The notes: generated by a model from the sequence alone, not told the origin. DNA of 64,000 nucleotides from Vicinamibacterales bacterium (GCA_023717525.1 JAMQPK010000126.1:160-64159); one strand, 5' to 3'. Positions 11,723 through 41,943 are shown, counted from the first letter of the stretch. Numbers and translations are program-made.

Positions 11723-11750
11723 TAACGACCAACGACGAACGACTAAAGAC
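11723..11750. repeat. Heptamer array (NAACGAC x4)
   Basis: The units TAACGAC CAACGAC GAACGAC TAAAGAC lie between the terminator hairpin and the receptor stop codon. Confidence 0.8.
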
Positions 11751-11754
11751 TAAT

Positions 11755-14700
11755 TTAGTTGAACGAGTACCGCAGACTGAGCATCCACTGATACACGTCG
11801 CCGGTGAACGCCGAACGCGAGACCGAATTCGTGATCAGCTGGTTATTGAGGGTCGCGAGACGATAGGTGGCTCTGCCCTGGGCGTCGACGGCAGGGTTCG
11901 TCAGAATCTGCACCTGATTGTTCGTGTTCGTCGATGCAACCTGCTGCCAGCTTACGCCCCATCCGCTGTTCAACAGGTTGCCGAGGTTGAAGATATCCAG
12001 GCGAAGCTGAAACGCATTGCGCTGGTCGTGAACGTTCTTGAAGAAATCCTGCGAGATGCTCATGTCCGCGCGATTGAACATCGGCATGACCCCGGCGTTC
12101 CTCTTGGCGTACTCGCCGCGGTGCTCCTTTAGATAGGAATCCTGCTTAATGAACGCCTCGAACGCTGCCGCCTGCTGATCGGCGCTGTACGTGATGCCGG
12201 TGGTGGTGGTAAACGCCGAGAAGTTCATTTCGGACGCATCCTTCGGGATATAGATCAGGTCGTTCGTCACGCCGTCGCCGTTCAAGTCGCCGCCATAGAT
12301 GTAGCTGAAGCGCGAAGACGGGGTGGACGACGCCTGAGCTTCGCGCGCTTCCCAGAAGACCGACACGGATGTTGCACCGAACTTGAAGTACTCGTGACTA
12401 TACGAGCCCAGCACGAACACGCGGTGGCCAGGCGACCACATCGAATAAGAGACGCCAGAGTTATTCGGATCTCCGAACGTCGACACTCTCTGAAAGCTTG
12501 TCGCGGCCGTCGATTCCGGATCGACCAGCGTCCTCGAGACACCGTAACTATAGGCGCCGCGCAGAGACAACCCGAAGGTCGTCGTCTTCGACAGCGACTG
12601 GGAGAAATTCGACGAACTGCCCTCGTTACCGTTCTTGAGCACGTAGTTGACCGTCACCTGGTTGCCGGTGTCGTTGTTGATGCGGTTGACGCACCCGCCT
12701 GCCTGACCGTTGGCCGCGCACGCCACCCCGACCCATCGCATGCGGTTGTCGACGCCGTTGAAGGCGCCTTGTGCCGCAGGCAGATTGGAGTTGATGTAGT
12801 AGACGCCGTTGACGTCGTTGGCGTACAGGAATTCCGTCGTGCTGACAATTCCCTTCGGCAGCCGGTGATCGAGCGCGATGTTCGAGCGCCACACCTGCGG
12901 GAATTTGAAGTCGGGGTCGGTCACGTTCAGGGCATAGCTGCTTGCGCCGGCGCCTGTCGGCGTACCCTGGTACTTCTTCACATCCGTCGTGAAGGGGAAC
13001 GCCGTGGTGTTGTCAACGATGCGCTCGCCGATGAGCACGCCGGTATTGCCGATCTGGTTGGAGATCCAGACGTAGGGCGGGCGGCCCGTGAACAGCCCGG
13101 TGCCTCCGCGCACCTGAGTCTTCTGGTCGCCGGTGACGTCCCAGTTGATGCCCACGCGCGGCGACCAGAGTATCTGCGTATCCGGCATCCGGCCGGTGTC
13201 GTACTTCACCGGACTGCCCGTCTCGTCGCGGAACGTCAACGCGTCGGCAGCCGCATTTCGGTACGCCGTGTTCTTGAACTTAGTGATGTCGGCGCGGACG
13301 CCGGCGGTGAGGGTGACATTGCGTCGAGGCCGCCATTCATCCTGAGCGTAGCCGGCGCCGTACCAGACATCCAGCGGCTGCAAAGGCTTATCGAGGCCCG
13401 GCAGGTTCACCCAGCGGATCTGGAACCGGCCGGCCGTCACCGGCGAGACCGTCCGGTTGGGATTTGCCAGGGCATCGTTGGCATCGGCATAGAAATCGGT
13501 CTGGGAGTTGTACTGCCAGGCGCCCTGCGGACAGCAGCCAAAAAACACGTTGTCCGAATGATACTTCTCGGCAAATGTGCCAAAGGTGAACGAGTGTTTG
13601 TCGGTGAACTTCGTCAGGTTGTCCTGAATCTGAAACGTGCCGTAGCGCAACTCGTTGTTGACGGTGAACGGTTCGAAGCCAAACGATGAATAAGACGTGC
13701 CGGCCTCGAAGATGTCGACGAAGGGGAACATCTTTCCGCGCGCGTCGCGGCTCTCGTCCTGATAGGTGTAGCCGGTCTGAAACGTGTTGGCCATGTTGTT
13801 GCCAAGCACCGTGTTCCACTCGCCGATGCCGGATTTCATGTTCTCGAGAATCTTGTAGTCCGAGTTCTGGAAATTCATGGACGTCGCGCTGTTGCCCGAT
13901 CGGCCTCGGAGCGCCGAACCCGAACTCGACATGTACACGTCGGTGAACGAATCCAGTTGGGTGTACCTGAATGTGATCTTGTTCGTGTTGTTGAGGTTGT
14001 AATCGCTGCGGATCAAGAACCGTTTGGCGGGCGTCTGGTCGGGAACGTCCTCGAACGGACCTGTTTCGTAGCCGAATTTCGAACCCAGGAACGAGCTCAG
14101 CGCTGTCATGTCGGAAGCCGATACGCGTGTAATCTGACCCGCGACGGCCTCGCCGCGGTTGGCGCGAAAGGTCGAGAGCGGACGTTCGTCCTTCTCATCT
14201 TCATAGTTCCCGAATGCGAACCATTTGTTCTTCACGATGGGCCCAGACCCAAAGCCGCCGGTGTTCCGGAATGTGAACGTGCCCGGATTCACCGTCTGGC
14301 CTTTGGCCTCGGTGCCGACCCAGTCCTGGTCGCGGAACCGGTGGTAGAACGCGCCGGCGACCTTGTTTGCGCCGCTGCGCGTGACCGTATTGACGCCCGC
14401 ACCGACGAAGCTGCCCTGGCGCACGTCGAACGGCGCCACGCTCACCTGAATCTGTTCGATGGCCTCGAGCGAGATGGGAGCAACGCCCGTGCGGCCGCCG
14501 ACCTCGCCAGAAAGGCCGAAGCCGCTGTTGAAGGTCGATCCGTCAACCGTCATGTTGTTCATGCGGTTGTCCTGGCCGGCGAACGTGCCGCTCGCGCCGG
14601 CTTGTGGCGACAGGCGCGTCACGTCGCCGATCCGGCCCGACAACGTCGGCAGGTTGGCAATCTCGTCGCGGCTCACCTGTGTCGCCGCGCCCGTCCGGTT

Positions 14701-15135
14701 CGACGAAAAAACGGGGTCGCTCTGTCCGGAGACGGTCACTTCCTCGCTCACCGTGATGGCCTGAACGATGACGTTGACGTCGCTCGAGATTCCGAGGTTG
14801 ACGGTAATGCCCTCCTTCGTTTGTGGCGCGAACGCCGCGCCACCCGCTCCGGTGAACACGACCTGCAAGGTGTAGGGCCCCCCAACGCGCATGTTCGGGA
14901 TCGCGTATCGACCGTCTGCGCGGGTCGTCGTTTCATAGCTCGTCCCAGATGGCTCGTGGATAGCGATGACAGATGCACCGGCGACGGGCTGACTCTGGGC
15001 ATTGGTGACCAGACCGCTGATGGTCCCCGTGGTCACGCCCTGTGCATAGGCTCTCCCGGTGGAGCCCGAGACCGAGCCAAGCGCGACAAACGCGAACGCG
15101 AGCCAAAGGGCCAGGCTGCTGTGACGTAAATTCAT
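11755..15135 (-). CDS. TonB-dependent outer-membrane receptor with N-terminal carboxypeptidase-regulatory-like domain
   Basis: It has a signal peptide (MNLRHSSLALWLAFAFVALG...AYAQG), a CarboxypepD_reg-like strand pattern (GTISGLVTNAQSQPVAGASVIAIHEPSGTSYETTTRADGRYAIPNMRVGGPYTL), a plug region and a long beta-barrel. ATG 15135 is preceded by GGAGAG. Confidence 0.9.
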   Translation of the reverse strand: MNLRHSSLALWLAFAFVALGSVSGSTGRAYAQGVTTGTISGLVTNAQSQPVAGASVIAIHEPSGTSYETTTRADGRYAIPNMRVGGPYTLQVVFTGAGGAAFAPQTKEGITVNLGISSDVNVIVQAITVSEEVTVSGQSDPVFSSNRTGAATQVSRDEIANLPTLSGRIGDVTRLSPQAGASGTFAGQDNRMNNMTVDGSTFNSGFGLSGEVGGRTGVAPISLEAIEQIQVSVAPFDVRQGSFVGAGVNTVTRSGANKVAGAFYHRFRDQDWVGTEAKGQTVNPGTFTFRNTGGFGSGPIVKNKWFAFGNYEDEKDERPLSTFRANRGEAVAGQITRVSASDMTALSSFLGSKFGYETGPFEDVPDQTPAKRFLIRSDYNLNNTNKITFRYTQLDSFTDVYMSSSGSALRGRSGNSATSMNFQNSDYKILENMKSGIGEWNTVLGNNMANTFQTGYTYQDESRDARGKMFPFVDIFEAGTSYSSFGFEPFTVNNELRYGTFQIQDNLTKFTDKHSFTFGTFAEKYHSDNVFFGCCPQGAWQYNSQTDFYADANDALANPNRTVSPVTAGRFQIRWVNLPGLDKPLQPLDVWYGAGYAQDEWRPRRNVTLTAGVRADITKFKNTAYRNAAADALTFRDETGSPVKYDTGRMPDTQILWSPRVGINWDVTGDQKTQVRGGTGLFTGRPPYVWISNQIGNTGVLIGERIVDNTTAFPFTTDVKKYQGTPTGAGASSYALNVTDPDFKFPQVWRSNIALDHRLPKGIVSTTEFLYANDVNGVYYINSNLPAAQGAFNGVDNRMRWVGVACAANGQAGGCVNRINNDTGNQVTVNYVLKNGNEGSSSNFSQSLSKTTTFGLSLRGAYSYGVSRTLVDPESTAATSFQRVSTFGDPNNSGVSYSMWSPGHRVFVLGSYSHEYFKFGATSVSVFWEAREAQASSTPSSRFSYIYGGDLNGDGVTNDLIYIPKDASEMNFSAFTTTTGITYSADQQAAAFEAFIKQDSYLKEHRGEYAKRNAGVMPMFNRADMSISQDFFKNVHDQRNAFQLRLDIFNLGNLLNSGWGVSWQQVASTNTNNQVQILTNPAVDAQGRATYRLATLNNQLITNSVSRSAFTGDVYQWMLSLRYSFN

Positions 15136-15161
15136 GATGTGCTCTCCAGACTGTTCTAGAC

Positions 15162-15300
15162 CATACGTCCGGGCGGCAACGAACGTATGAATGAAGTTGA
15201 AACGTGGGATAAATTGCACGGAGGCCCGATAACGAACAAGGAAAGAAGGTATTAAGGACAAGATGAAAACAGGCTTGACCCGCTGCCGCCCGAACGTACG
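15162..15300 (-). other. Structured 5' leader or MITE-like inverted repeat upstream of the TonB-dependent receptor gene
   Basis: The 17-nt arms at 15284-15300 and 15162-15178 pair perfectly in the minus-strand RNA (15 Watson-Crick plus 2 G-U pairs) and enclose 105 nt. On the plus strand the same two positions would be C-A mismatches. Confidence 0.5.
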
Positions 15301-15906: not shown

Positions 15907-16001
15907 ATGCACCTTTGCACGTGTATAACGACGGAGTGGGGAAAAACGCTTACCTCGTTACCCAACGGTGGGACCTAAAACGGTTTAGTAAAGGAATTTA
16001 C

Positions 16002-16586
16002 TCACGGTGCCAGCTTCGATATTTTCCAGCCCCGGCCCTTCTTCACGTAGAACGTCCGGTCGTGAAGCCGGAAACGCTGCCCCTGCCAGAACTCAATGCT
16101 GTCCGGGATGACACGGAACCCTCCCCAGAACGGCGGACGCGGCACGCGCTTGCCGGAAAATAGTGCAGCCAGACGCGCGTACTCGCGTTCAAGGAACGCC
16201 CGGTCGGGAATCTCCGAGCTTTGCGGCGAGGCCCAGGCACTGAGCCGGCTCTCGCGCGGGCGACTGCTGAAATAGCGATCAGACTCGGTGCGGGGCACCT
16301 TTTCGACGCGCCCCTCGACCCGCACTTGCCGCTCGCCCTCGGGCCAATGGAACACGCATGCCGCGCGGGGGTTGGCAACCAGGTCAGCGGCTTTTGGACT
16401 CCGATAGTTGGTGAAAAAGACGAAACCACCTCGACTGAAGCCCCGGTACAGCACCATCCGGACCGAGGGTGCGCCGGCCGAGGAAGCCGTGGCCAGGGCC
16501 ATCGCTTCGGGCAGCAGCGCCCCCGAGGCAGCCGCTTCCTTGTACCACCGCTTGAACAGGGCGATTGGATCGGCCGTTTCAGGCAT
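16002..16586 (-). CDS. pdxH: Pyridoxamine 5'-phosphate oxidase
   Basis: The 194-aa product has SVRMVLYRGF, FVFFTNYRSPKA and the C-terminal IEFWQGQRFRLHDR motifs. The long listed ORF (to 17630) is an antisense extension across glnS. Confidence 0.9.
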   Translation of the reverse strand: MPETADPIALFKRWYKEAAASGALLPEAMALATASSAGAPSVRMVLYRGFSRGGFVFFTNYRSPKAADLVANPRAACVFHWPEGERQVRVEGRVEKVPRTESDRYFSSRPRESRLSAWASPQSSEIPDRAFLEREYARLAALFSGKRVPRPPFWGGFRVIPDSIEFWQGQRFRLHDRTFYVKKGRGWKISKLAP

Positions 16587-16619
16587 CAACTCGTCATTCT
16601 GCACTAAAATTGGCGGCTC

Positions 16620-18335: not shown

Positions 18336-18716
18336 ATGAACCGATTTCTGGCGCAGGACGTGGCGTTCGAGCCGGCCGATCCGAAGAATTTCGTGGGGAA
18401 CGCGCGCGTGAAACGGCTGAGGATGGCCGAAGGCACTGTGGTCTTTCTCGTCGAGTTCGATCCCGGCGGGCGCACAAACTGGCACGCCCATAGCGCGCCC
18501 CAGTTGCTGCTCGTCAACGAGGGACGCGGCCTGGTGCAGAAGTGGGGCGAGCCCATCGTCGAACTGACGGCCGGCGATGCCATCACGATCGAGCCGAACG
18601 AAAAGCACTGGCATGGCGCGGCGCCTTCCGCCAGAATGGCGCACTTTGCCGTGAACCTGAATCTGACCACTAAGTGGTTCGAACCTGTATCGGACGACCA
18701 ATACTGTGCATCCTGA
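18336..18716 (+). CDS. Cupin-domain protein
   Basis: The 126-aa protein has the cupin metal motifs GGRTNWHAH...E and EKHWHGA. Confidence 0.75.
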   Translation: MNRFLAQDVAFEPADPKNFVGNARVKRLRMAEGTVVFLVEFDPGGRTNWHAHSAPQLLLVNEGRGLVQKWGEPIVELTAGDAITIEPNEKHWHGAAPSARMAHFAVNLNLTTKWFEPVSDDQYCAS

Positions 18717-19977
18717 GCTGCAAGAAGCCCTCGAATTTCACAAATCCATCGTAGCCGAGGCCGGCAAGGCGCTGGTCGGGTACGAGACCGAAAAGGCGCT
18801 CGCCAACATCGTCCTGATGTCGGAGATTCCGACGACGTACGACCAGGACGAGCAGAAACAGGTGAACGCCGGCAACCTGCTGCTGCGCGGCGTGCCGGGC
18901 ATCGGCAAGACATTCTTCGGCGTGATCATCGCCGCCATCAGCGACGCGCGCTTCGCACGCATCCAGGGACGCGCCGATTTGCAGCCGACCGAGGTCGTCG
19001 GTTTCCAGATGATCAATCCGGCGACCGGTGCGTTCATCACCGAGTTCGGGCCTCTCGCGTCGGCCGAAGTCATTCTGCTCGACGAAATCAACCGCATCCC
19101 GCTGAAATCGCAGAGCGCGTTTCTCGAGGGGCTGCAGGATCGCAAGATCACCGTCGGCAAGACGACCTACGACCTGCCGACATTCAGCTTCGCCATCGCC
19201 ACGATGAATCCCGTTGAGCTCGGGCAGGGCACGTTCCCGTTGTCGGAGGCGGCCACCGACCGGTTCGCCATCATGGTGAACATCGGCTACCTCCCGCCGG
19301 AGGAGGAACAGAAGCTCGTCAACTTCGACTTCAAGCAGGTGCGCCTGAACAAGTTGATGTCGAAGGAGCGCATCGTGCAGCTGCGGGGTGCTATCACTCG
19401 AGAAGTGTTCCTGCACGAGAAGCTCGGGAAATACATCCGCCGGCTGGTGGGAGCCACTCGTCCGTACAACGTCGAGACCGACTGGCTGTACAAGTCGCCC
19501 TCCGACCTCGTTGAGCAGCACGTCGATCTGGGCGCGTCGCCGCGGGCGACGATCTGCTGGGGCCGCCTTGTGAAGGTGTGGGCGGTGCTCGCGCGCGACG
19601 GCAACCATCGGTCTGTCGGCCGTCTACTTTCAGGACATGTTCGGGTTGATGACGTTCGACAGCGGATTCGAGAACATGGCCTCGCTGCGGCCGCGCGTGG
19701 GCCGAGGCCACGTCATCCACTGCCTGGACGGGTATCAGGGACGTGTCGGGATGGAGGAAGTGAAAAGCGGCGTGCGGCTCGCGACGACGATCGGCGGCCA
19801 CTTGCGCCGGACCTCGCTGTTGCCGGTGGTGTCCGATTTTCTGTTCGAAGGAGCCGGCGACGCGATTCGCGAGCTCTCCCACCTGAATTCCGTGCACGAC
19901 GTGTTTCTCGTGATGATCGACAGCGCCTTCGCCTTCGAGCTGCCGGACGTGTCGGCGGGGTGGCTGAGCGCGTATGA
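18706..19977 (+). CDS. MoxR-like AAA+ ATPase, with the 3' end apparently replaced by an out-of-frame tail
   Basis: It has Walker A GVPGIGKT, Walker B VILLDEINR, and ATMNP...PLSEAATDRF. MoxR-like sequence stops near LARDGNH (about 19600). The remaining ~124 codons are Arg-rich and overlap the DUF58 frame. Confidence 0.7.
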   Translation: MHPELQEALEFHKSIVAEAGKALVGYETEKALANIVLMSEIPTTYDQDEQKQVNAGNLLLRGVPGIGKTFFGVIIAAISDARFARIQGRADLQPTEVVGFQMINPATGAFITEFGPLASAEVILLDEINRIPLKSQSAFLEGLQDRKITVGKTTYDLPTFSFAIATMNPVELGQGTFPLSEAATDRFAIMVNIGYLPPEEEQKLVNFDFKQVRLNKLMSKERIVQLRGAITREVFLHEKLGKYIRRLVGATRPYNVETDWLYKSPSDLVEQHVDLGASPRATICWGRLVKVWAVLARDGNHRSVGRLLSGHVRVDDVRQRIREHGLAAAARGPRPRHPLPGRVSGTCRDGGSEKRRAARDDDRRPLAPDLAVAGGVRFSVRRSRRRDSRALPPEFRARRVSRDDRQRLRLRAAGRVGGVAERV

Positions 19978-20176
19978 CGTCGAGACCGGCCAATCGCGGC
20001 TGGTCTCGCGCCGCGAACTGCACGCGCTCGGGCGGCGCGTCCGCGAGTGGCAGGACGACATCGAACGGCAGGCCCACGATCATGATATCGACGTGTTGCG
20101 GCTCGATGTGGATCAGGAAAAGAGCCTGCCGACGCTGCTCGAGTTCGTGATGGTGCGGAGGCTGCGGAAGAAATAG
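19574..20176 (+). pseudogene. DUF58-family protein, C-terminal part only (N-terminal half missing)
   Basis: The frame opens at 19574 and the first ATG is at 19637. TIGLSAVYFQDMFGLMTFDSG...HVIHCLD...VFLVMIDSAF resembles the central and C-terminal VWA-like part of DUF58 proteins that follow MoxR. The N-terminal region typical of DUF58 proteins, recalled as containing a GDD.R.IDW-type motif, is absent. Confidence 0.55.
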
Positions 20177-20204
20177 GGCTGAGGGCTATGGGCTGAGGGC
20201 CAAG
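20177..20204. repeat. Heptamer array (GGCTGAG-type x4)
   Basis: The units GGCTGAG GGCTATG GGCTGAG GGCCAAG start 1 nt after the DUF58 stop. They are followed by AGCAAGC AGCAAGA. Confidence 0.8.
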
Positions 20205-20263
20205 TCCACGCAGCAAGCAGCAAGATGTTGCTATCAGGATCCGGAGCGTGAGCGACGGCTGCG

Positions 20264-24443: not shown

Positions 24444-24541
24444 GGAAACTGCAAACTTGAAGGCAAGTGAAGAAGTGCACTCCAGTGACGGGTTACCTTC
24501 TACTTACTTTCCACTTTCCACTTTCTACTTTCCACTTTCTC
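24444..24541. repeat. Inverted heptamer arrays between the convergent VWA and icd genes (right arm CTTTCCA x5)
   Basis: The right arm at 24507-24541 is CTTTCCA CTTTCCA CTTTCTA CTTTCCA CTTTCTC. The left arm at 24444-24477 is GGAAACT GCAAACT TGAAGGC AAGTGAA GAAGTG, roughly the reverse complement. Confidence 0.75.
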
Positions 24542-24542
24542 G

Positions 24543-25850
24543 TTACATGTGTCTTACTACCGCTCCCCCGAACTCCGAACACTTCACTTCCTTCGCTCCA
24601 TCCATGAGGCGAGCAAAATCGTAGGTGACGGTCTTCGCGGAAATCGCCCCTTCCATACCCCGCACAATGAGGTCAGCCGCTTCGTCCCAACCCAGGTAAC
24701 GGAGCATCATCTCGCCTGAAAGGATCACCGAGCCGGGGTTCACCTTGTCCTGATTCGCGTATTTCGGGGCGGTTCCATGCGTCGCTTCGAAGATCGCGTG
24801 ACCGGTAAGGTAGTTGGCGTTGCCGCCCGGTGCGATGCCGATGCCGCCGACCTGCGCGGCAAGCGCGTCCGAGAGGTAGTCGCCGTTGAGGTTGGGTGTG
24901 GCGATCACATCGAACTCGTCGGGCCGCGTGAGCACCTGCTGCAGTGTGATGTCGGCGATGGAGTCCTTGATGACGATCCCCGCCCCTGGCTTGCCCTCGG
25001 GTATTCTGCACCACGGTCCGCCGTCGATCTCAACGGCACCGTAAAAGTTCTTCGCAACCCGATAGCCCCAGTCGCGAAAGGCGCCCTCTGTGAACTTCAT
25101 GATGTTGCCTTTGTGGACGAGCGTGACGCTCTTCCGCTTGTGCTTGACGGCATAGCCGAGCGCGCTGTGAACCAGCCGTTCAGTGCCGAGATAGCTGATG
25201 GGCTTCAGGCCGATACCGACTTGAACGCTCACTTCGCGCGCGGGCGCCCCGATTGATTCGAGCAGCGCCTGCCATTCCTTCGAGGAGTCGAGGCTGCCGA
25301 AGCGAATCTTCTTGAACTCCTTCGGAAATTCCTTCGCGAAGAAGTCGAGCAGCTTCTGAGCTTCAGGGGTTCCCGCCGCGTATTCGATGCCGGCGTAGAT
25401 GTCTTCGGTGTTCTCCCGGAAGATGGTCATGTCGACCTTCTCCGGGTGCTTCACCGGCGACGGTACGCCCTTGTACCAGCGCACGGGCCTGAGGCACACG
25501 TAGAGATCGAGCAACTGGCGCAGCGCGACGTTCAGTGATCGGATGCCGCCGCCCACCGGAGTCGTCAACGGACCCTTGATGCCCACGAGATACTGGCGAA
25601 ACGCCGCGAGTGTTTCATCCGGCAGCCAGTTGCGAACAGTCGTGAAGGCCTTCTCACCTGCGAGCACCTCCATCCAGCTGATGCGACGACGGCCGCCGTA
25701 CGCTTTCTCGACCGCTGCGTCGAATACGCCGACGCTCGCGCGCCAGATGTCGGGGCCCGTACCGTCGCCTTCGATATAGGGGATCGTCGGATGATCGGGA
25801 ACGTTCAGTCTGCCGTTGGCGATGGTGATTGTGTTTCCCTGCTGCGTCAT
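24543..25850 (-). CDS. icd: NADP-dependent isocitrate dehydrogenase
   Basis: It has [34 protein letters not shown] and [26 protein letters not shown], which are Icd hallmarks. ATG 25850 is preferred, with TTG 25871 as an alternative. Confidence 0.93.
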
Positions 25851-25883
25851 AAGCTGATAATCGTATCGCAACTACGAGCCCAC

Positions 25884-25911
25884 AGACTTCGGGCTCCGGG
25901 CTTTGGGCTTG
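25884..25911. repeat. Heptamer array (GGGCTTN-type x4)
   Basis: The units AGACTTC GGGCTCC GGGCTTT GGGCTTG lie between the act-operon terminator and the icd start. Confidence 0.7.
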
Positions 25912-25920: not shown

Positions 25921-25958
25921 CAAAAACCAAGGGCGCGAGGACCGAAGTCCTCGCGCCC
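25921..25958 (-). terminator. Intrinsic terminator ending the act-like operon
   Basis: The minus strand reads GGGCGCGAGGAC-TTCG-GTCCTCGCGCCC-TTGGTTTTTG. This is a perfect 12-bp stem with a tetraloop and a U-rich tail, 25 nt after the cytochrome c stop. Confidence 0.85.
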
Positions 25959-25982: not shown

Positions 25983-26366
25983 CTATTTCGCCAGCGTCCT
26001 TACGTAGTTCACGATGTCGGTGATCTCTTCCGGCTTCAGCCGCTTGGCCATCGCCGGCATGTTTCCGATCTCGCTCTTCTTGCCGTTCGAGACCAGCTCG
26101 TGAATGGCGGGGTCGGTCAACTTTGCCATCACGGCCTTGTCCGACAAGTCGGGCAGCTTACCCTTGAGCGTCTTCGCCGCGGGACCATCGCCTTTGCCGG
26201 CGGGGCCGTGGCACGTCTGGCACGAGCGCTTGAAGAGCGCTTCACCGTTGGCGATCGATTCAGGGCTGGCCTTCGCCGCGGGTGCTGCAGGCTTCGCCTG
26301 GCCAGCATAGACCGCCGTCATACAGAACAGCGCGAGTAATCCGGTCATTCCTAGAAATTTCGTCAT
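25983..26366 (-). CDS. actE: Monoheme class I c-type cytochrome (ActE-like)
   Basis: It has a signal peptide, a single CQTCHG heme motif, and a distal Met region (GNMPAM). It is the last gene of the ACIII-like operon. Confidence 0.8.
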   Translation of the reverse strand: MTKFLGMTGLLALFCMTAVYAGQAKPAAPAAKASPESIANGEALFKRSCQTCHGPAGKGDGPAAKTLKGKLPDLSDKAVMAKLTDPAIHELVSNGKKSEIGNMPAMAKRLKPEEITDIVNYVRTLAK

Positions 26367-26381
26367 CAGCAAATCCTCAAT

Positions 26382-26423
26382 AAACGGTAGACGATGAACG
26401 GTCGACGGTAAACGGTAAACGAC
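26382..26423. repeat. Heptamer array (RRACGGT-type x6)
   Basis: The units AAACGGT AGACGAT GAACGGT CGACGGT AAACGGT AAACGAC fill most of the actD-actE spacer. Confidence 0.8.
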
Positions 26424-26929
26424 TACACCCAGTTTACCGTAGTTGCTCCGGCCGCGTGGACCGCTTCCTCGACGGCCTTGCGATTTCGGTCCGAATAGGG
26501 GACAGCTACGACCACGCCGCCGTCAACGACGCTCGGATCATAGGGGCGGCCGGAGAAACTCGGCAGCCGCAACTCGACGAGCAGACCAGCCAGCGTCGCC
26601 AGCACGGCGCCGAGCATCGTCGTTTCGTATGTGATGAGCCCGACCGTCCAGGGCGCGACGATAGGCATCCCGCCTTTGACGAGCGGATAGGCAAGCGCAG
26701 AGAACGTGGCGAGCGAGAAGCCGCCAATCATGCCGAGGGCCGCTCCCGAGAGTGCCCACGCGAATAACTTCGTCGGCTTCTTCTCCGGCAGAAACGGCTC
26801 GCCGTGAATCGGCTGGGACGTCATGACGTCCATCGACTGCGGATCCACGCCCGACTGCAGCAGCCGGCGGATCGCCGCCCGAGCTTCAACGGGCTGATTG
26901 AACTTTGCCAGGCACCAGGTCTGAGACAT
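26423..26929 (-). CDS. actD: DUF3341 membrane protein (ActD-like)
   Basis: The 168-aa protein has a soluble N-domain, two TM helices (LFAWALSGAALGMIGGF, TMLGAVLATLAGLLV) and a C-terminal domain. It follows an NrfD-type subunit, as in ACIII. Confidence 0.75.
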   Translation of the reverse strand: MSQTWCLAKFNQPVEARAAIRRLLQSGVDPQSMDVMTSQPIHGEPFLPEKKPTKLFAWALSGAALGMIGGFSLATFSALAYPLVKGGMPIVAPWTVGLITYETTMLGAVLATLAGLLVELRLPSFSGRPYDPSVVDGGVVVAVPYSDRNRKAVEEAVHAAGATTVNWV

Positions 26930-26930
26930 G

Positions 26931-26986
26931 GAATTTGAAATGTGAAATCTGAAATTTGAAATTTAAGACTTGAAACTTGACATCAC
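26931..26986. repeat. Heptamer array (AAANNTG-type x8)
   Basis: The units GAATTTG AAATGTG AAATCTG AAATTTG AAATTTA AGACTTG AAACTTG ACATCAC show that the actC-actD spacer is essentially eight 7-bp units. Confidence 0.8.
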
Positions 26987-28374
26987 TAGTGTCCCGGGTG
27001 CACATCCCCCGGCGCTATCTGTCCGACAAACGTGGGGTCAGGCAGCTCCCCGCGATGCTTCGATGCGACCTGCAACCCTTCCTCGTACTCCCAGATCGAA
27101 ATCATGGGGCTGAATTTCGCAAACAGGAAGTACATCAGCACGAAGAATCCCAGCGTGCCCCCGGCGATCGCCATTTCCGTGTACGAGGGCCAGTAGTGGC
27201 CGTAGTTATACGGCAAGTACGGATGCACCAGCGTCGGGACGATGATCAGGAACCGCTCCAGCCACATGCCGACGAGAATGCCGCACGAGGCCATGAAGAT
27301 GAGCGGGATGGTTCGCAGCTTCTTAATCGCCAGAACCGGAAATGGGATGATGAAGTTGCAGATCACCATCAGCCAGAACATCGGCGCATACCGGCCGGAG
27401 ATTTTCGACCAGAACACCGTCATTTCCGCCGGCTCGTTGCCGTACCACGTCACGAGATACTCCGTGAACGTGAAATAGAACCACAGCAGGCTCATCGTCA
27501 GCAGCATCTTTGCAAGATTGTCGAAGTGCACCGGCTGCAGATAGTGCTCGAGCTTGAAGTATTTCCGGATCATCACCATCGCGATCAGCAGTGCGGCGAT
27601 GCCGGAGAAGATCGCGCCGACGACGAAGTATGGGCCGAAGATCGTCGAGTGCCACATCGGCATCACCGTCATGGCGAAGTCCCACGACACGATCGTGTGG
27701 ACCGACACGGCGACAGGAATGATGACGAGGGCCATTATCGAGATCGCCTTCTCGAGGCGCACCCACTCGCGTTCGGTGCCTCGCCAGCCGAGGGCCAGCG
27801 TGCGATACATCGGCTGGCGCCAGCCGGTCGATTTGTCGCGCGCGACGGCCATGTCCGGAATCATCGGCAGGTACAGGTATGTGACGCTTCCGGTCAGGTA
27901 CGTGTTGATGGCGATGAAGTCCCACATCAGCGGCGATTGGAAGTTCGGCCACAGGTGCCGGCTGTTCGGGAACGGAATCATCCAGTAGAAGAGCCATGCG
28001 CGGCCGAGATGGATGAGAGGGAAGAGCGAGCCGGTGACGAGGGCGAAGGTCGTGATCGCTTCGGCGCAGCGCGTAATCGGCCGGCGCCACTCTGCCTGAA
28101 CAACGCGCAGGATGGCCGAGATGAGCGTGCCGGCGTGGCTGATGCCGATCCAGAACACGAACGTGGTGATGTAGAGACCCCAGTACGACGGCCGGTTCTT
28201 GCCCGCCATGCCGATGCCGTACTTCAGCTGCAGCCCCCAGGCGACGAACACGACCATTGCCACCAGCAGCAGAAATCCAGTCGTGACGTAGTAGATGGCG
28301 CTCGTCTTGAACAACGGGCCGAGCAGGTCGCGGTTGATCCGTGCTTCGGTAAAGCGAGGCGTTTCGGCGGCCAT
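26986..28374 (-). CDS. actC: NrfD/PsrC-type polytopic quinone-interacting membrane subunit (ActC-like)
   Basis: The 462-aa protein has about 10 TM helices and NrfD-like segments (WGLYITTFVFWIGISHAGTLISAILR). Confidence 0.85.
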   Translation of the reverse strand: MAAETPRFTEARINRDLLGPLFKTSAIYYVTTGFLLLVAMVVFVAWGLQLKYGIGMAGKNRPSYWGLYITTFVFWIGISHAGTLISAILRVVQAEWRRPITRCAEAITTFALVTGSLFPLIHLGRAWLFYWMIPFPNSRHLWPNFQSPLMWDFIAINTYLTGSVTYLYLPMIPDMAVARDKSTGWRQPMYRTLALGWRGTEREWVRLEKAISIMALVIIPVAVSVHTIVSWDFAMTVMPMWHSTIFGPYFVVGAIFSGIAALLIAMVMIRKYFKLEHYLQPVHFDNLAKMLLTMSLLWFYFTFTEYLVTWYGNEPAEMTVFWSKISGRYAPMFWLMVICNFIIPFPVLAIKKLRTIPLIFMASCGILVGMWLERFLIIVPTLVHPYLPYNYGHYWPSYTEMAIAGGTLGFFVLMYFLFAKFSPMISIWEYEEGLQVASKHRGELPDPTFVGQIAPGDVHPGH

Positions 28375-28377
28375 CGG

Positions 28378-29079
28378 CTACGCCCCCCCGCCGCTCAGGT
28401 ACACGACGCGCGGCCGTGTGCCGAGTTCTTCGAGGAGGCGACGCCCGCGATTGGATCGCGATAGCTTCGACACCTCGCTGTCTTCGTCGCTCAAGTCGCC
28501 AAACACGATCACTTTTGCGGGGCACGCCTGTGCGCAAGCCGGCTTGATCTCGCCGTCCTTCACCGCGCGCTTCTCATCCTTTGCCGTGTCTTGCGCGCGG
28601 CGGATCCGCTGCACGCAGAACGTGCACTTTTCCATGATGCCACTCGTGCGAATCGAGACGTCGGGGTTCAGCTGCTCGTTCATCGGGCTATCCCACGAGG
28701 GTGTGAACCACGTGAAGAAGCGGACGGTGTATGGGCAGTTGTTGGCGCAGAACCGGGTGCCGACGCAGCGGTTGTAAACCTGGGCGTTCAGTCCGTCCGG
28801 GGTGTGATAGGTCGCATTTACGGGGCAAACCGGCTCGCACGGCGCCGCGTCGCATTGCTGGCACATCACCGGCATGAACTTCGCCTTGATGTTCGGGAAC
28901 TCTCCTTCCCAGTACCGTTCGACTCGGATCCACTGATGCGTCCGGCCCATGGCGGCCTGTTCGGGACCGACGGTCGGCAGATTGTTTTCCGCGTGACACG
29001 CCACGACGCAGGCTTCGCAACCTGTGCAGCGGTCGGTGTCGACGGTCATTCCCCAGCTTGGCATGTAGCTGATCCTCAT
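28378..29079 (-). CDS. actB2: 4Fe-4S ferredoxin-type iron-sulfur subunit (ActB2/PsrB-like)
   Basis: It has four Cys clusters: CTGCEACVVACHAEN, CQQCDAAPCEPVCP, CVGTRFCANNCP and CTFCVQR...CAQACP. Confidence 0.9.
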   Translation of the reverse strand: MRISYMPSWGMTVDTDRCTGCEACVVACHAENNLPTVGPEQAAMGRTHQWIRVERYWEGEFPNIKAKFMPVMCQQCDAAPCEPVCPVNATYHTPDGLNAQVYNRCVGTRFCANNCPYTVRFFTWFTPSWDSPMNEQLNPDVSIRTSGIMEKCTFCVQRIRRAQDTAKDEKRAVKDGEIKPACAQACPAKVIVFGDLSDEDSEVSKLSRSNRGRRLLEELGTRPRVVYLSGGGA

Positions 29080-29080
29080 T

Positions 29081-29143
29081 GGCTCTAGGCTCTGGGCTTT
29101 CGGCCAGCAGCGCGGCCCAAAGCCTAAAGTCCAAAGCCCAAAG
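29081..29143. repeat. 63-bp palindromic heptamer element, copy 1
   Basis: There are nine in-register units: GGCTCTA GGCTCTG GGCTTTC GGCCAGC AGCGCGG CCCAAAG CCTAAAG TCCAAAG CCCAAAG. The left and right arms are imperfect reverse complements (19 of 25 positions). The element fills the actB1-actB2 spacer. Confidence 0.85.
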
Positions 29144-29145
29144 TC

Positions 29146-31422
29146 CTATCGATGCGGCGGCTCCTCGTGATGGTCTCTCGCCTCCGGGTTCCCGAACCGG
29201 ATGATCTCTTCAACGCGACCCGCCTTCGCGACGCCGACACGTACGCCTGCCTGGACGACGGCTCCCGATGCTGTATCGAGCGCCGAAGTCGCGAGGGTCA
29301 GCGGGTTCGCGCCACGGCTCGACGCGTACCGCCCATACTGCGTGTGCCCCTGGCCAACCGGAATCGAAATCACGTCGGGCCGCAACCCGGGATAGATGTA
29401 CGCCGGAAGCTCGATGGTTCCCTGCGCCGATCGAATCATCAGGACGTCGCCCTCATGAATCTCCAGCTTGCGCGCCGTGTCCGGATTGATTTCAACCCAC
29501 GATCCCCACATCACCGTCGTCATGGGATCCGGCATCTCCTGCAGCCACGGCAGATGCGCCGTCCGCCCGTCTGCAAATGCGGCGGAAGCATAGAGATGAA
29601 GCGCGAAGGGGAACTGTTGTGGATCCCCGGCAAACGCGCGCGCGGTGACTGGTGCCTGGGGCATCACGAAATTCACCTTGGCCGGCGTGAGGGTCTTGCC
29701 CTCAGCCCTCAGCCCTGAGCCCTCGGCCGCCGTAGGCGGCGTCGCCCACCATCCTCCCGCTTCCGTGACCTTTTTGTAGAACGCGTCGAAATCCGGATCG
29801 ACGGTCGAGCCCGTATTCAACGCGTGCACGGTTCGAAAGGATTCCTTCACGGCTGCCGCGAATGTTTCGTAGGGAAGCGCCTCGGCCACCTTGCCGCCGA
29901 GCGCTTTCGCGGTCTCGATCAACACGTCTCCCGTGTCGCGCGTGTCCCAGCGCGGCTCAACCACCGGCTGACCCAGCGTCCGAATCGGGAACCCGACGCC
30001 TGGCTCGGGCACATCATCGATCCAGCGCTCAAGCGAGTGATGGTTGGGAAGGATCAGATCGGCCATGACCGCCGTCTCATCGAGGAACGACGAGAAACTC
30101 GCGATGAACGGCACAGCCGACAGGGCCGTTTGCAGCTTCTTCGCTTCCGGTAACGTGAACAGCGGATTTGCGTCGAACAGCAGAAGCGCTTTCACGCCGC
30201 CAGCACCGTCGATGAACCTGTGAATATCCGGGCCGGCCGTAGCGGGAGCAGGCCCGGGTGACTCGGCGCTGTCACGGAGAATGCCGCCCTTTGTCCCGTA
30301 GGCGCCAACGAGCGCGTTCAGCGCGTAGATCGCGGTAAGGGATGCGACATCGCGGCTGTCGCCAACGGCCACGCTCGGACGGCGTTGCGCGAACTCGCGC
30401 GCGATGCGTTCGATCTTCTCGGCCGGCACGTCGACTTGTCCCGCCACCGTCGCCGGTGCATAGTTCGCGAGCGTTGCAGACCATGCGGCGAACCCGTTGG
30501 TCTTCTGGTTCACGAAGTCGGCGTCGTACAGTTTTTCGTTCACGATGACGTGCGCCATCGCCAGCGCGAGCAGGCCTTCCGTTCCCGGCTTGATAGGCAG
30601 CCACTCGTCGGCGCACGCCGCTGTCTGCGACAAGCGAGGCTCCGCGTGCACGAACTTTCCGCGCATGCCGGGACGGCCCTGACGGAACATGCCGTATGCG
30701 TAGATGTTGCGGACAGGGGAAAGGAACGTCTCGAACAGATTCGCGTTGAACGACAGCAGGTACATCGCGTTGGCAAAATCGACGGCCGGGAGTTTCGCGA
30801 CCCCGGTCGTCAGCTCCATCGCCTTCCGGATCGGCGCGGGATCGAACGGATCGTAGGAGACGACGTTCGTGCTGCCGAGGCCCGCCGCGAACCGCTCGAT
30901 CACTGTTCCCATGGTGCCGCGGTTTCTTCGACCGGTCAGCATTGTGATCGCCTGCGGCGCGGCTTGCTGCTGCTGAAGCTGCGTGACGAGCTGCTGCTGC
31001 GCCTCTTTCCACGTGATCGCCTGATACTGCCCGGACCCACGGGGCCCTGACAGCTTCAACGGCGTGCGAATGCGATCGGGATGGTAGAGCGCCTGTACGC
31101 CGGCCTGGCCCCGGGCGCACGTGCCGCCCATGCTGATCGGGTGATCGGGATTGCCTTCGATCTTCTTGGCCTGCACGGCCTTCACGCGCTTCTGCTGACC
31201 ATCGATCGTCCGGACCGACTGTCCCTGCATGACGCGCACGTTGATGCCGCATCCTGCGGCGCACTGCTGGCAGACGGAGCGGATCCAGCCCTCCTCGCCG
31301 GGGACGAAGGTGTCTTCGCCGACGAGCAAAGGAATCAGCTCCTGCGGCTTGCCGCATCCGTCGAGGATGAGGCCCGCGGTGCCGACCACGCCGCCTGTTT
31401 TCAGGAAATCTCGTCTCTTCAT
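29146..31422 (-). CDS. actB1: Molybdopterin-oxidoreductase-family catalytic-type subunit with Tat signal (ActB1-like)
   Basis: It has the Tat motif MKRRDFLKTGG and the N-terminal FS0-type cysteines CQQCAAGC...GNPDHPISMGGTCARG. It is MopB-sized. ATG 31422 is chosen over the listed 31473. Confidence 0.85.
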   Translation of the reverse strand: MKRRDFLKTGGVVGTAGLILDGCGKPQELIPLLVGEDTFVPGEEGWIRSVCQQCAAGCGINVRVMQGQSVRTIDGQQKRVKAVQAKKIEGNPDHPISMGGTCARGQAGVQALYHPDRIRTPLKLSGPRGSGQYQAITWKEAQQQLVTQLQQQQAAPQAITMLTGRRNRGTMGTVIERFAAGLGSTNVVSYDPFDPAPIRKAMELTTGVAKLPAVDFANAMYLLSFNANLFETFLSPVRNIYAYGMFRQGRPGMRGKFVHAEPRLSQTAACADEWLPIKPGTEGLLALAMAHVIVNEKLYDADFVNQKTNGFAAWSATLANYAPATVAGQVDVPAEKIERIAREFAQRRPSVAVGDSRDVASLTAIYALNALVGAYGTKGGILRDSAESPGPAPATAGPDIHRFIDGAGGVKALLLFDANPLFTLPEAKKLQTALSAVPFIASFSSFLDETAVMADLILPNHHSLERWIDDVPEPGVGFPIRTLGQPVVEPRWDTRDTGDVLIETAKALGGKVAEALPYETFAAAVKESFRTVHALNTGSTVDPDFDAFYKKVTEAGGWWATPPTAAEGSGLRAEGKTLTPAKVNFVMPQAPVTARAFAGDPQQFPFALHLYASAAFADGRTAHLPWLQEMPDPMTTVMWGSWVEINPDTARKLEIHEGDVLMIRSAQGTIELPAYIYPGLRPDVISIPVGQGHTQYGRYASSRGANPLTLATSALDTASGAVVQAGVRVGVAKAGRVEEIIRFGNPEARDHHEEPPHR
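29698..29732. repeat. Heptamer array inside the actB1-like coding region
   Basis: The units GCCCTCA GCCCTCA GCCCTGA GCCCTCG GCCGCCG encode AEGSGLRAEG on the minus strand. This is the same unit, reverse complemented, as the array at 20177. Confidence 0.75.
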
Positions 31423-31483
31423 GTTTAATCGCGGGGGTCCCTCACCCCGCTCGCGGCTCGTTTCTCCGACCAACCTATGTGAC

Positions 31484-31544
31484 TAACGACAAACGAGTGA
31501 GACCAACGACTGGCACCAACGACCAACGACTAACGACCAACGAC
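31484..31544. repeat. Heptamer array (NAACGAC x9, two 6-nt units)
   Basis: The units TAACGAC AAACGAG TGAGAC CAACGAC TGGCAC CAACGAC CAACGAC TAACGAC CAACGAC lie in the actA-actB1 spacer. Confidence 0.85.
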
Positions 31545-31548
31545 TAAG

Positions 31549-32049
31549 TTATTTATGGCACGTCAGGCAGTCGTCGCTGACTTTCTTCTCACGATGGCAA
31601 TCGATGCATTTCCCCATCGTCCAACGAATGTTCTCCTTCATGGGCGTCATCATGTTCTTCATGTCGCCATGACAGGTGGAGCAATCCACGCCGGCTTTCA
31701 CGTGACGCTTATGACTGAAGTAAACCGCGGCTTCCTCCGGGAAACCGTAGACGCGCACCCAGGGCGGCTCCTCGTTCTTCTGCGCGTAGGCCGCCAGCTT
31801 CTTGATCTCGGGGCTGTCGGTCTTCACGTTTTCGTGGCACACCATGCATTCGGTGACGCTTGGAATGGTCGCGGCAATCGACCGATCGGCGTTCACGTGG
31901 CACGAGAGGCACTCCATCTGGTTGTCGACGACGTGGATCTTGTGCGGATAGGCAATCGGTTGAGGGACCACGCGCGCAGGCCGGAAGGCGAACGCCACAG
32001 TGGCAATCAGGAGAATCAGCACAACCGCGCCGAGAACGTATTTGCGCAT
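31549..32049 (-). CDS. actA: Membrane-anchored pentaheme c-type cytochrome (ActA-like)
   Basis: It has an N-terminal TM anchor and five CxxCH motifs (CLSCH, CMVCH, CSTCH, CIDCH, CLTCH). Confidence 0.85.
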   Translation of the reverse strand: MRKYVLGAVVLILLIATVAFAFRPARVVPQPIAYPHKIHVVDNQMECLSCHVNADRSIAATIPSVTECMVCHENVKTDSPEIKKLAAYAQKNEEPPWVRVYGFPEEAAVYFSHKRHVKAGVDCSTCHGDMKNMMTPMKENIRWTMGKCIDCHREKKVSDDCLTCHK

Positions 32050-34156: not shown

Positions 34157-34193
34157 GGGAATGCGTCGAGTATAACCTTTGAATTCACGACCC

Positions 34194-34667
34194 ATGTCTG
34201 ACCGTAAATATCGGCAGCGCGGCTATCAGGATTCAGGCGGGGAGCGAAAAGGGCCACAAACTGGTCCAAAAGCGCCCCTTCCCAAGCCGCCGGCCGACCG
34301 GATCGAAACCCGTCTCGACAAAGCCGAGCGAAAGGCCCTCGACGGCCGGGGGCCGAGCGTGCCGGGCTATCACGAGGTGATGCGCTGCGCGCGGTGCGGC
34401 AATGTCTTTACCGATACGATCCTCTCGCTCTCGCGGTGCAAGCGTTGTGGCGCCGATCTGCGATCGTGCGCGCAGTGCGAGTCGTTCGATACGGGAAGAC
34501 GGTTCGAGTGCGCCCAGATCATTCCGGTTCGCATTTCACCCAAAGATGCGGCCAACTCGTGCGAGTTGTTTTCGCCGCGTGTGACGGTGGAGCGCGATAC
34601 CCATTCGCCGACCCAGCGCGACGCTCCCAACAGCGCCAAGAAGGCGTTCGACGACCTGTTTAAATGA
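34194..34667 (+). CDS. Hypothetical zinc-ribbon protein
   Basis: It has a basic disordered N-terminus (MSDRKYRQRGYQDSGG...) and then three CxxC pairs (CARC, CKRC, CAQC) plus two further Cys. ATG 34194 is preferred to the listed 34179. Confidence 0.6.
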   Translation: MSDRKYRQRGYQDSGGERKGPQTGPKAPLPKPPADRIETRLDKAERKALDGRGPSVPGYHEVMRCARCGNVFTDTILSLSRCKRCGADLRSCAQCESFDTGRRFECAQIIPVRISPKDAANSCELFSPRVTVERDTHSPTQRDAPNSAKKAFDDLFK

Positions 34668-34730
34668 GGCTCTAGGCTCCGGGCTTTAGGCTCTGGGCCA
34701 TGCCAAAAGCCGAGAGTCCAAAGCCCGACG
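34668..34730. repeat. 63-bp palindromic heptamer element, copy 2
   Basis: The units are GGCTCTA GGCTCCG GGCTTTA GGCTCTG GGCCATG CCAAAAG CCGAGAG TCCAAAG CCCGACG. It starts 1 nt after the zinc-ribbon gene stop and runs into the listed start of the next ORF. Confidence 0.85.
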
Positions 34731-34732
34731 TC

Positions 34733-41159: not shown

Positions 41160-41869
41160 GCAGCGGGAGCAGCCAGGTCGATCTTCTCGCCTTCGGGCCG
41201 CACCCAGACGATCTGGAGATCGGGCTCGGGGGCTCGCTTGCCAGGCACGCCGCTCGAGGCCATCACGTCGGACTCTGCGACCTCACGCGGGGCGAAATGT
41301 CGAGCAATGGCACACCCGAGCAGCGCGTGAAGGAGGCTGAAGACGCGAGACAGGTGCTCGGTGCAGCCTGGCGCGAGAATCTTGCGCTCCCGGATCGCGG
41401 CATCGGGTCGAGCCCGGAACACATGCGGAAGGTGGTGGAGCTCGTGCGCCGGTGCCGTCCCCGCGCCGTCGCGCTGCCGTATTGGGAGGATCGGCATCCC
41501 GATCATGTGGCGTCGGCCGTGCTTCTTCGCGAAGCCGTATTCAACGCCAAGCTGCGCCGGTACGAGGCCGATGGCGATCCGTGGCAGCCGGAGTGGACGT
41601 GTTTCTATTTCATCAACGATAGCGTGCGGCCGTCGTTCGTGATTGACGTGACGGACTACTACGACGCGAAACGGCGGGCGCTCGCCTGCTACGCCAGCCA
41701 GTTTACCCGTGCAACCGAAGGCGCTGACACGCGTCTAAATGCACCGGGCTTCCGTCAGCTCATCGAGAGCCGCGACGCGCAGTTCGGTGCCCAGGTGGGC
41801 GTCGCGTTTGCGGAGGGCATCGTCGTGAACGAGCCCGTGGTTCGGAATGGACTGCTCAAGAATGAATAG
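41156..41869 (+). CDS. bshB1: PIG-L/LmbE-family deacetylase, BshB1-like (bacillithiol biosynthesis)
   Basis: It has the motifs FGPHPDDLEIGLGGSLA and HPDHVA, is 237 aa, and lies immediately upstream of a BshA-like glycosyltransferase. Confidence 0.75.
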   Translation: MSSGSSQVDLLAFGPHPDDLEIGLGGSLARHAARGHHVGLCDLTRGEMSSNGTPEQRVKEAEDARQVLGAAWRENLALPDRGIGSSPEHMRKVVELVRRCRPRAVALPYWEDRHPDHVASAVLLREAVFNAKLRRYEADGDPWQPEWTCFYFINDSVRPSFVIDVTDYYDAKRRALACYASQFTRATEGADTRLNAPGFRQLIESRDAQFGAQVGVAFAEGIVVNEPVVRNGLLKNE

Positions 41870-41880
41870 ACTTCACACTC

Positions 41881-41943
41881 CGGACTTCGGACTCCAGGCT
41901 CGCCTTGCAGGCCCAAAGCCCAAAGCCCGAAGCCCGAAGCCAA
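41881..41943. repeat. 63-bp palindromic heptamer element, copy 3 (diverged left arm)
   Basis: The units CGGACTT CGGACTC CAGGCTC GCCTTGC AGGCCCA AAGCCCA AAGCCCG AAGCCCG AAGCCAA lie in the bshB1-bshA spacer. Confidence 0.8.

Follow-up and report, generated by a model that had tools for sequence, protein, structure and literature searches.

The short tandemly repeated repetitive (STRR) sequences of heterocystous cyanobacteria comprise several families of 7-nt tandem repeats that are intergenic and transcribed and have no known function. Here, we describe heptanucleotide arrays of this general kind in a 64,000-nt stretch of a Vicinamibacterales bacterium (GCA_023717525.1, JAMQPK010000126.1:160-64159; hereafter the window, with positions counted from its first letter), where they fill spacers between genes and differ in unit from locus to locus. 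A reading made from the sequence alone had proposed an STRR-like architecture in an Acidobacteria-type genome, and this is borne out: the order is Vicinamibacterales (Acidobacteriota), with the NrfD-type protein encoded at 26986-28374 being 93 to 94% identical to proteins from Vicinamibacterales metagenome-assembled genomes. As in the STRR, 7-nt tandem repeats occupy intergenic transcribed DNA; unlike the STRR, the host is not cyanobacterial and the units differ, although the STRR unit sequences themselves were not searched for. Another related system is found in enterobacteria, where repetitive extragenic palindromic sequences and bacterial interspersed mosaic elements (REP/BIME) consist of a conserved sequence of ~35 nt that is spread by the RAYT transposase and can stabilise upstream mRNA. 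Like REP/BIME, our arrays lie past stop codons in co-directional and convergent spacers and form stem-loops without a U-tract, but they have no conserved sequence, their stems are made of 7-nt repeats, and they appear to grow in place.

Heptanucleotides are the commonest class among long simple sequence repeats (SSRs) across many bacteria, for which polymerase slippage has been proposed, and long heptanucleotide SSRs are lineage-specific, with examples in Burkholderia, Xanthomonas, cyanobacteria, and actinobacteria (Mrazek, Guo & Shah 2007, as cited in PMC4679880 and PMC4692102). The closest described cases are the Xanthomonas unit GGGAATC and the Nostoc PCC 7120 unit GGGGA(C/T)T, with ~4 units preferred, enrichment between co-oriented genes, depletion between divergent genes, and occasional inverted pairs (Rehm et al. 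2015; PMC4692102). Their sites are kept in related genomes while length and sequence vary, and the repeats are described there as transcribed, with no function found (PMC4692102). The same account lists three heptanucleotides in Calothrix PCC 7601 (PMC4692102). In marine Beggiatoaceae, TAACTGA direct repeats of two to six copies are abundant, intergenic, and near the borders of coding sequences, and an RNA-level role has been suggested (MacGregor 2015; PMC4679880); these have one fixed unit and lie mainly just upstream of starts, whereas the arrays described here have many units and lie mainly just past stops. The STRR, which the sequence-only reading had named as the only precedent it knew, are thus not alone, since the Xanthomonas GGGAATC and Nostoc GGGGATT heptamers obey the same position and strand rules and heptameric SSRs in general are common and published.

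In the window, Tandem Repeats Finder (TRF) reports 13 period-7 arrays, compared with 2.07 ± 1.41 (maximum, 6) in 100 dinucleotide-preserving shuffles run at the same threshold. Period 14 (4 arrays observed versus 0.5 in shuffles) and period 21 (2 versus 0.04) are also enriched, their rows describing the same arrays as the period-7 rows, and all other periods are close to the shuffle expectation. On a curated gene map, built from open reading frames (ORFs) and the pattern of GC content at the three codon positions (GC1/GC2/GC3) and checked with Pfam, of the 20 non-coding gaps that measure 25 nt or more, 11 show lag-7 or lag-14 self-match (p ≤ 0.007; 300 shuffles per gap), and a 17-nt gap holds a further 2.3 heptamer copies. 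By a hand tally from coordinates, arrays cover about one-fifth of non-coding bases and ~60% of the array-bearing spacers. Signal is missing mainly from gaps that are divergent or carry promoters (15913-16619, 53496-53559, and the stretches upstream of ActA and the gene of the outer-membrane protein). TRF and direct reading recover a period-7 tandem array within a few nucleotides of each of the eleven places that had been named; the further statement that most spacers are built in this way is correct between 11.7 and 42 kb (11 of 15), but over the whole window the fraction is about half. The arrays are confirmed as heptanucleotide SSRs beyond chance.

The minus strand carries an Alternative Complex III operon (25983-32049; ActA, ActB1, ActB2, ActC, ActD, and ActE, by Pfam), in which every intercistronic spacer is a heptamer array save the 3-nt ActB2-ActC junction. 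ActB is here split over two genes (28378-31473), B1 being molybdopterin-like and B2 of the Fe-S kind, as also seen in L001-L024. Around this operon, 17 Vicinamibacterales loci sharing the gene order carry 1 to 6 period-7 arrays per 10 kb, and outgroups with the operon (other Acidobacteriota orders and ~55 Gemmatimonadota loci) carry 0 to 1. Counting arrays with a score of at least 40, the Vicinamibacterales act locus (318 kb) has 10.7 period-7 and 8.8 period-14 arrays per 100 kb, and Gemmatimonadota plus other outgroups (1.04 Mb) have 0 and 0.87. An independent genomic region, the E1 dehydrogenase region of 80 soil metagenome contigs (578 kb; protein 79 to 94% identical), has 4.7 and 3.1, with period 8 elevated as well (4.0 versus 0.5 per 100 kb). 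The enrichment over outgroups is observed at two genomic regions in dozens of relatives, and assemblies of independent origin (MEGAHIT, SPAdes, long-read, and Logan), drawn from many studies, show the same architecture. Its presence in independent assemblies and in a second genomic region makes it a trait of the lineage and not of this assembly. A literature search found no publication linking Acidobacteriota or Vicinamibacteria with heptanucleotide repeats.

Orthologous spacers show how these arrays change. In most of the 17 genomes, a tandem array makes up the ActB1-ActB2 spacer, each genome having its own unit (AAAATCT, TTTCAGA, GGTTCTG, and GATTCTA among others); the spacer has period 8 in four genomes, inverted pairs in three, and only 3 to 12 nt in two, and its length among relatives ranges from 3 nt to 148 nt. 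The period-8 spacers (L003, L004, L008, and L011; ~9150-9270, or ~2765-2875 in L003) are built from units GAAGATTG followed by inverted CAATCTGC. At the ActC-ActD junction, seven genomes carry 3 to 10 copies of AGATTTC ending in "...AGATTCAT ATG", and three others have just GATTCAT, GATTCACG, or GATTCGCG (7 to 8 nt). The picture at ActC-ActD is that of a single local unit that would grow and collapse in place. The conserved leader between pepS9 and ActA has no periodicity in any genome compared.

Whole-unit changes in copy number are also found between close relatives. Over 1.35 kb, the Logan contig L081 (run SRR19536934) matches the window exactly apart from one additional CGTTTAC within the ActD-ActE array, and over its full length of 2.24 kb it has one substitution besides this insertion. 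Two metagenome contigs that are 97.5% identical (L091 and L093) are one GTCATCA unit apart. A third case lies in coding DNA, where the close relatives L008 and L009 differ by a 21-nt indel, equal to three units or seven codons, in an array within ActB1. These unit-step differences between near-identical contigs point to slippage as the process that creates and remodels the arrays and agree with the earlier suggestion of slipped-strand hot spots. In a second contig of run SRR19536934 (L082), the contig end falls within the ActA-ActB1 array, and the arrays at 34668-34730 are identical to those of the window.

The arrays are biased in their position relative to genes. As had been noted from the sequence, they abut stop and start codons and occupy both intra-operon and convergent spacers. 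In co-directional spacers, the array start lies a median of 4 nt past the upstream stop and within 10 nt in 42 of 62 arrays, these and the other bias counts being indicative and not exact because orthologous loci do not count as independent. Array density is 1.3 per kb in divergent spacers, about half of the 2.6 to 3.2 found in other spacer types. That arrays follow the stops of housekeeping genes (the Alternative Complex III operon and icd) and shun divergent promoter spacers speaks against phase-variation contingency loci, where an SSR within a promoter or the 5' coding part switches the expression of surface or variable genes. The units themselves are diverse, with 82 sense-strand unit classes among 125 arrays, and there is no single motif, in agreement with the claim that the unit differs between loci.

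Within the act operon, the ActA-ActB1 array (31484-31547, minus strand; sense GUCGUUG) begins 1 nt past the ActA stop and has 4.3 tight copies (TRF 31515-31544, ACCAACG ×4.3) with degenerate copies back to 31484; its folding is poorer than that of shuffles (z, +1.3). The ActC-ActD spacer (26931-26986, minus strand) is array throughout, with 7 copies of sense CAAAUUU/CAGAUUU (TRF 26932-26980, AATTTGA ×7) that reach the ActD start codon, and its RNA is predicted to be unstructured (z, −0.96). The ActD-ActE spacer (26381-26423, minus strand) holds 5.9 copies of sense CCGUUUA (TRF 26381-26421, TAAACGG ×5.9), followed by the Shine-Dalgarno sequence GAGGA. As RNA, these direct arrays fold either no better than shuffles or worse (z, +1.3 for ActA-ActB1, −1.0 for ActC-ActD, and +1.3 for ActD-ActE). 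We also observe that ActE retains GAGGA, whereas no Shine-Dalgarno sequence can be recognised for ActD, whose ATG directly adjoins the array or a lone GATTCAT unit (26927-26986; also L002, L003, L018, and L011), which suggests translation of ActD by re-initiation or by standby binding on unstructured RNA.

Between ActB1 and ActB2 (29081-29143, minus strand), an inverted array pair forms a hairpin (TRF 29115-29143, GCCCAAA ×4.1; inverted arm, 29081-29100), whose predicted stem is stronger in the sense RNA (−38.3 kcal/mol) than in the antisense (−30.2). Two further inverted pairs lie on the plus strand outside the operon. One, GGCTCYN ... CCAAAGN at 34668-34730 (TRF 34667-34698, AGGCTCT ×4.6, plus inverted arm; −35.3 kcal/mol; z, −3.6), directly follows the stop of the gene at 34179-34667, and its 3' arm overlaps the start of a thioredoxin-like gene that is annotated probably too early. 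The first 11 codons of that gene (34700-34732) are the 3' arm and are not conserved in relatives; the true start is probably the ATG at 34733, and heptamer arrays can thus mislead the calling of start codons. The other, GGACTTC ... GCCCRAA at 41881-41943 (TRF 41911-41941, GCCCAAA ×4.4, plus inverted arm), separates the genes of a PIG-L deacetylase and a GT4 glycosyltransferase. Its sense RNA has one A.C mismatch per unit (−26.6 kcal/mol) and its antisense pairs perfectly by way of G.U pairs (−54.3 kcal/mol), the unit-periodic mismatch being the expected product of a point change spreading along one arm. All three pairs form long predicted stems (−35 to −54 kcal/mol) in which the 5' arm is the G/U-rich one, and none is followed by a U-tract. 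The proposal of RNA hairpins for termination therefore stands as to the hairpins, and the terminator role is unsupported, because the hairpins have no U-tract and separate canonical terminators adjoin arrays. The terminator scan finds only one terminator near an array (11693-11720, minus strand; 12-bp stem plus U7; −24.9 kcal/mol; z, −2.9), a separate element that adjoins the array at 11721-11753. The terminator of the act operon is canonical too, with a 12-bp GC stem at 25931-25958 and a U-run at 25921-25930 on the minus strand (−60.5 kcal/mol for the spacer as a whole).

Outside the operon, arrays occupy the 3' untranslated regions (UTRs) of icd and of the gene coding for a TonB-type outer-membrane protein, the spacer after a DUF58 gene, and one spacer each of the glycosyltransferase and thioredoxin regions. 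The array at 11721-11753 (minus strand; ACTAACG ×4.7 on the plus strand by TRF, sense GUCGUUN; lag-7 p = 0.003) begins 1 nt past the stop of the outer-membrane protein gene (11755-15261), in its 3' UTR. Past the icd gene (24543-25871), 4.9 copies of sense GAAAGUG with 92% matches (24506-24541, minus strand; TRF 24506-24539, ACTTTCC ×4.9) begin 3 nt from the stop in a convergent spacer. The stretch from the ActE terminator to the icd start codon holds 3.4 copies of AAGCCCN (25884-25911, minus strand; TRF 25887-25910, CTTCGGG ×3.4), which are G-rich on the antisense strand and lie 15 nt upstream of icd. In this ActE-icd interval, most relatives have a small conserved gene on the opposite strand (L001-L020, locus ~12400-12850), and two also have an aquaporin-like insert; both are absent from the window, and relatives with the small gene carry heptamer arrays on both sides of the shared terminator, as an inverted repeat.

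On the plus strand, ~4 copies of AGGGCTG (20175-20204; TRF 20175-20200, ×3.7) begin at the stop codon of the DUF58 gene and provide four sense-strand GGG tracts, which fits a G-quadruplex motif; a mini-array of GCAGCAA (2.1 copies by TRF) follows at 20210-20224. At 18706-20176, ~340 nt of the DUF58 ORF are shared, in a different frame, with a MoxR-type AAA ORF of 423 aa, and the DUF58 match begins at profile position 94, which could be a frameshift or a mis-set assembly boundary. A second mini-array, AGGGGAG at 54204-54221 (plus strand; 2.3 copies, TRF 54204-54219), fills the 17 nt that separate the TetR-type gene from the HlyD-type gene; by length comparison, the spacer at 54205-54221 is 17 nt in L083 as well. 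Finally, one array is translated. At 29698-29728 (minus strand), 4.4 copies of sense TGAGGGC encode AEGSGLRAEGK within ActB1, in a low-complexity linker between "AGGWW" and "VNFVMP" (aa ~575-600) whose length and sequence vary in all relatives. Period 7 had been called incompatible with coding, and nearly all arrays are indeed non-coding; this one, with its 21-nt (7-aa) steps, shows that the incompatibility is not strict, and the in-frame indel between L008 and L009 shows that period 7 is tolerable in coding DNA when steps preserve the frame.

Taken with the described systems, our verdict is that this is a known kind of repeat, that of cyanobacteria and Xanthomonas, in a new lineage. The arrays resemble the Xanthomonas and Nostoc heptamers in their 7-nt units of ~4 copies, non-coding location, preference for co-oriented over divergent spacers, inverted pairs, and variation at orthologous sites, and the Nostoc-type GGGGATT/AGGGATT is the commonest unit in Vicinamibacterales relatives. 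With long SSRs in general they share the 7-nt favoured unit and the lineage-specific distribution. They differ from the Xanthomonas and Nostoc heptamers in their 82 unit classes, with most window units lacking G-tracts, in belonging to another phylum, in their higher density (~half of spacers), in the period 8 of some orthologous sites, and in the one translated array.

With a probability of about 60%, we read these arrays as heptanucleotide microsatellites that are made and remodelled in Vicinamibacterales by slipped-strand duplication and deletion in unit steps, and we infer replication slippage as the molecular cause. Any short stretch beside a stop codon could serve as a seed; the array would lengthen and shorten in 7-nt steps and point changes would spread along it, the unit drifting while the 7-nt period stays. 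Where a change of length harms, selection would purge arrays; this would hold for promoters, for 5' leaders, and for the bulk of coding DNA, in which a tolerant linker would let only 21-nt steps survive, and the remaining arrays would pile up in transcribed 3' untranslated and intercistronic spacers. On the mRNA, direct arrays would act as structure-poor linkers, and inverted pairs would form long stem-loops without a U-tract that could protect the 3' end of the RNA or insulate cistrons in a REP-like manner. Such a selective filter is supported by the non-periodic pepS9-ActA leader, the sparse divergent spacers, and the confinement of the coding array to a hypervariable linker.

Several observations weigh against slippage as the whole explanation. 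Of the 41 arrays with at least 30 nt of free spacer, 30 sit nearer the stop (p = 0.004), which pure neutral slippage does not predict. Nor does it predict the sense strand of arrays, with 33% G versus 16% C and with G exceeding C in 44 of 62 arrays, where other spacer DNA has equal G and C; some of these counts are inflated by the shared ancestry of orthologous loci. AGGGATT/GGGGATT is found at unrelated loci with the sense strand always G-rich, and an expectation-maximization alignment of unit rotations yields a weak YYNNRRG pattern (2.86 bits versus 2.42 ± 0.06 for shuffled units). In addition, compact structural modules of phages are very rich in arrays. Scanning IMG/VR for (GGGATTN)3GGG gives 99 stretches, and many of the matching contigs (among L164-L243, including L217, L223, L234, and L235; GC, 0.62 to 0.68) are packed with heptamer arrays of diverse units, with as many as 18 arrays within 14 kb. 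Two of them, L234 and L223, are true structural modules of tailed phages that contain genes for major head, portal, adaptor, and protease, and L234 has an inverted array pair after most genes. The stop and strand biases, the recurrent units, the YYNNRRG pattern, and the phage density hint at function or a directed process. Slippage also leaves the choice of period 7, and sometimes 8, without explanation, and only two unit-step polymorphisms were observed.

The proximity to stops and the G-richness of the sense strand point to a second, transcription-linked influence. A replication-strand bias does not account for the skew: that of the arrays mostly tracks gene strand, on plus and minus alike, and the cumulative GC skew climbs throughout the window, which ties the bias to transcription and not to replication. 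The transcription-linked influence could be selection on RNA, for instance against C-rich untranslated stretches or for 3'-protecting stem-loops, or it could be a mutational bias where the transcript becomes ribosome-free, and the strand bias would then reflect one or the other.

The first alternative to remodelling by slippage alone is that the arrays serve as functional platforms, on RNA or single-stranded DNA, where an abundant factor of loose specificity with a footprint of ~7 nt (e.g., a cold-shock-domain or other OB-fold protein) lines up just past the stop and controls mRNA decay, Rho loading, or re-initiation, with slippage doing no more than tuning the number of sites. We consider this unlikely, even though the start of arrays a median of 4 nt past the stop, the preference for the stop side where room is free, the G-rich and C-poor sense strand, the weak YYNNRRG pattern common to units, and the typical ~4 to 5 units all agree with it. 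Direct arrays are also predicted to be single-stranded, the phage structural genes each have arrays after them, and CspB binds with one protein per heptamer according to the studies reviewed in PMC4679880. However, 82 unit classes share little common information, and the weakness of the YYNNRRG tendency makes a single sequence-specific binder look unlikely; several genomes have no array at a given spacer, with only 3 to 12 nt in its place; arrays occur within a coding linker; and no candidate protein was identified. A bolder reading, which we hold to be improbable, is that the 7-nt register is no side effect of ordinary slippage and that a dedicated factor, specific to the lineage and common to these bacteria and their phages, writes or reads it; this could be a nucleic-acid-binding protein polymerising in 7-nt steps on the naked post-stop transcript or a variant enzyme of repair or replication producing 7-nt duplications.

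Still less probable as a general account are G-quadruplex elements, proposed for the GGGAATC and GGGGATT repeats of Xanthomonas and Nostoc, in which four sense-strand G-tracts would fold and modulate transcription or translation. This would suit AGGGATT/GGGGATT, the commonest unit of the relatives and always G-rich in the sense, as well as the ~4 units that are typical and position rules that agree with those in PMC4692102. Within the window, four or more units with G-tracts of at least 3 are found at 20175-20204 and 29698-29728, each with four sense GGG tracts, and in the antisense of 41911-41941, and many arrays in relatives have them too; the other window arrays do not. CAAAUUU, GUCGUUG, CCGUUUA, and GAAAGUG have no G-tracts, so that most window arrays are unable to form a G-quadruplex, and these G-poor units keep the identical 7-nt period and positions. 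We thus reject G-quadruplexes as the general explanation and note that they fit AGGGATT-type units.

We give very little credence to the view that the arrays stem from an element, mobile or spread by recombination and akin to REP or miniature inverted-repeat transposable elements, whose copies were inserted after genes at dispersed sites. Unit families do recur (GGCTYTN/CCAAAGN at three window loci and AGGGATT widely in relatives), often as inverted pairs and in the niche of REP, but no conserved element with ends at many loci is found: units vary by locus, orthologous sites carry different units, and there are no conserved flanks. The arrays match a single seed unit in array-less genomes, changes are single 7-nt steps, and no transposase is seen beside arrays, the seed units and the absence of conserved flanks together contradicting a mobile origin. 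Chance or an assembly or polishing artefact has a negligible probability, since shuffle controls exclude chance, the architecture recurs in independent MEGAHIT, SPAdes, long-read, and Logan assemblies, and arrays of 20 to 60 nt are shorter than a sequencing read, which outweighs the general risk of repeat mis-assembly and the one Logan contig that ends within an array.

Elsewhere in the window, the 707 nt at 15913-16619 between the divergent genes of a MarR-type regulator and a glutaminyl/glutamyl-tRNA synthetase are unusually long for this compact genome; none of the ORFs in this region shows a GC pattern typical of coding or matches Pfam, and it has neither an Rfam match nor heptamer periodicity. 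A scan of the whole window with Rfam 15 at gathering score gave 0 matches, and a sigma-70 promoter scan of 11 to 31 kb gave zero sites. Exact-protein look-ups with ActB2, the PIG-L gene product, and that of icd matched no record.

Why the long microsatellites of bacteria prefer a unit of 7 nt is a question that has stood open since 2007. To our knowledge, no Vicinamibacteria genome existed at the time of the survey by Mrazek and colleagues, and we know of no function found for the STRR or for GGGAATC-type repeats. On a practical level, the arrays break short-read assemblies and shift predicted start codons, and they would be good strain-typing markers for uncultured soil Acidobacteriota. Should the array-rich phages have Vicinamibacterales as hosts, the cell, and not the past of a given replicon, would determine the 7-nt signature. 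If a dedicated 7-nt factor does exist, the arrays would be a genome-wide post-transcriptional or genome-maintenance system that would explain why seven is the unit of bacterial SSRs. In any case, Vicinamibacterales, which are among the most abundant soil bacteria, add a distant and very repeat-dense lineage with many unit types, in which orthologous turnover, strain-level unit steps, translated arrays, and phage genomes offer material to part mutational from functional causes.

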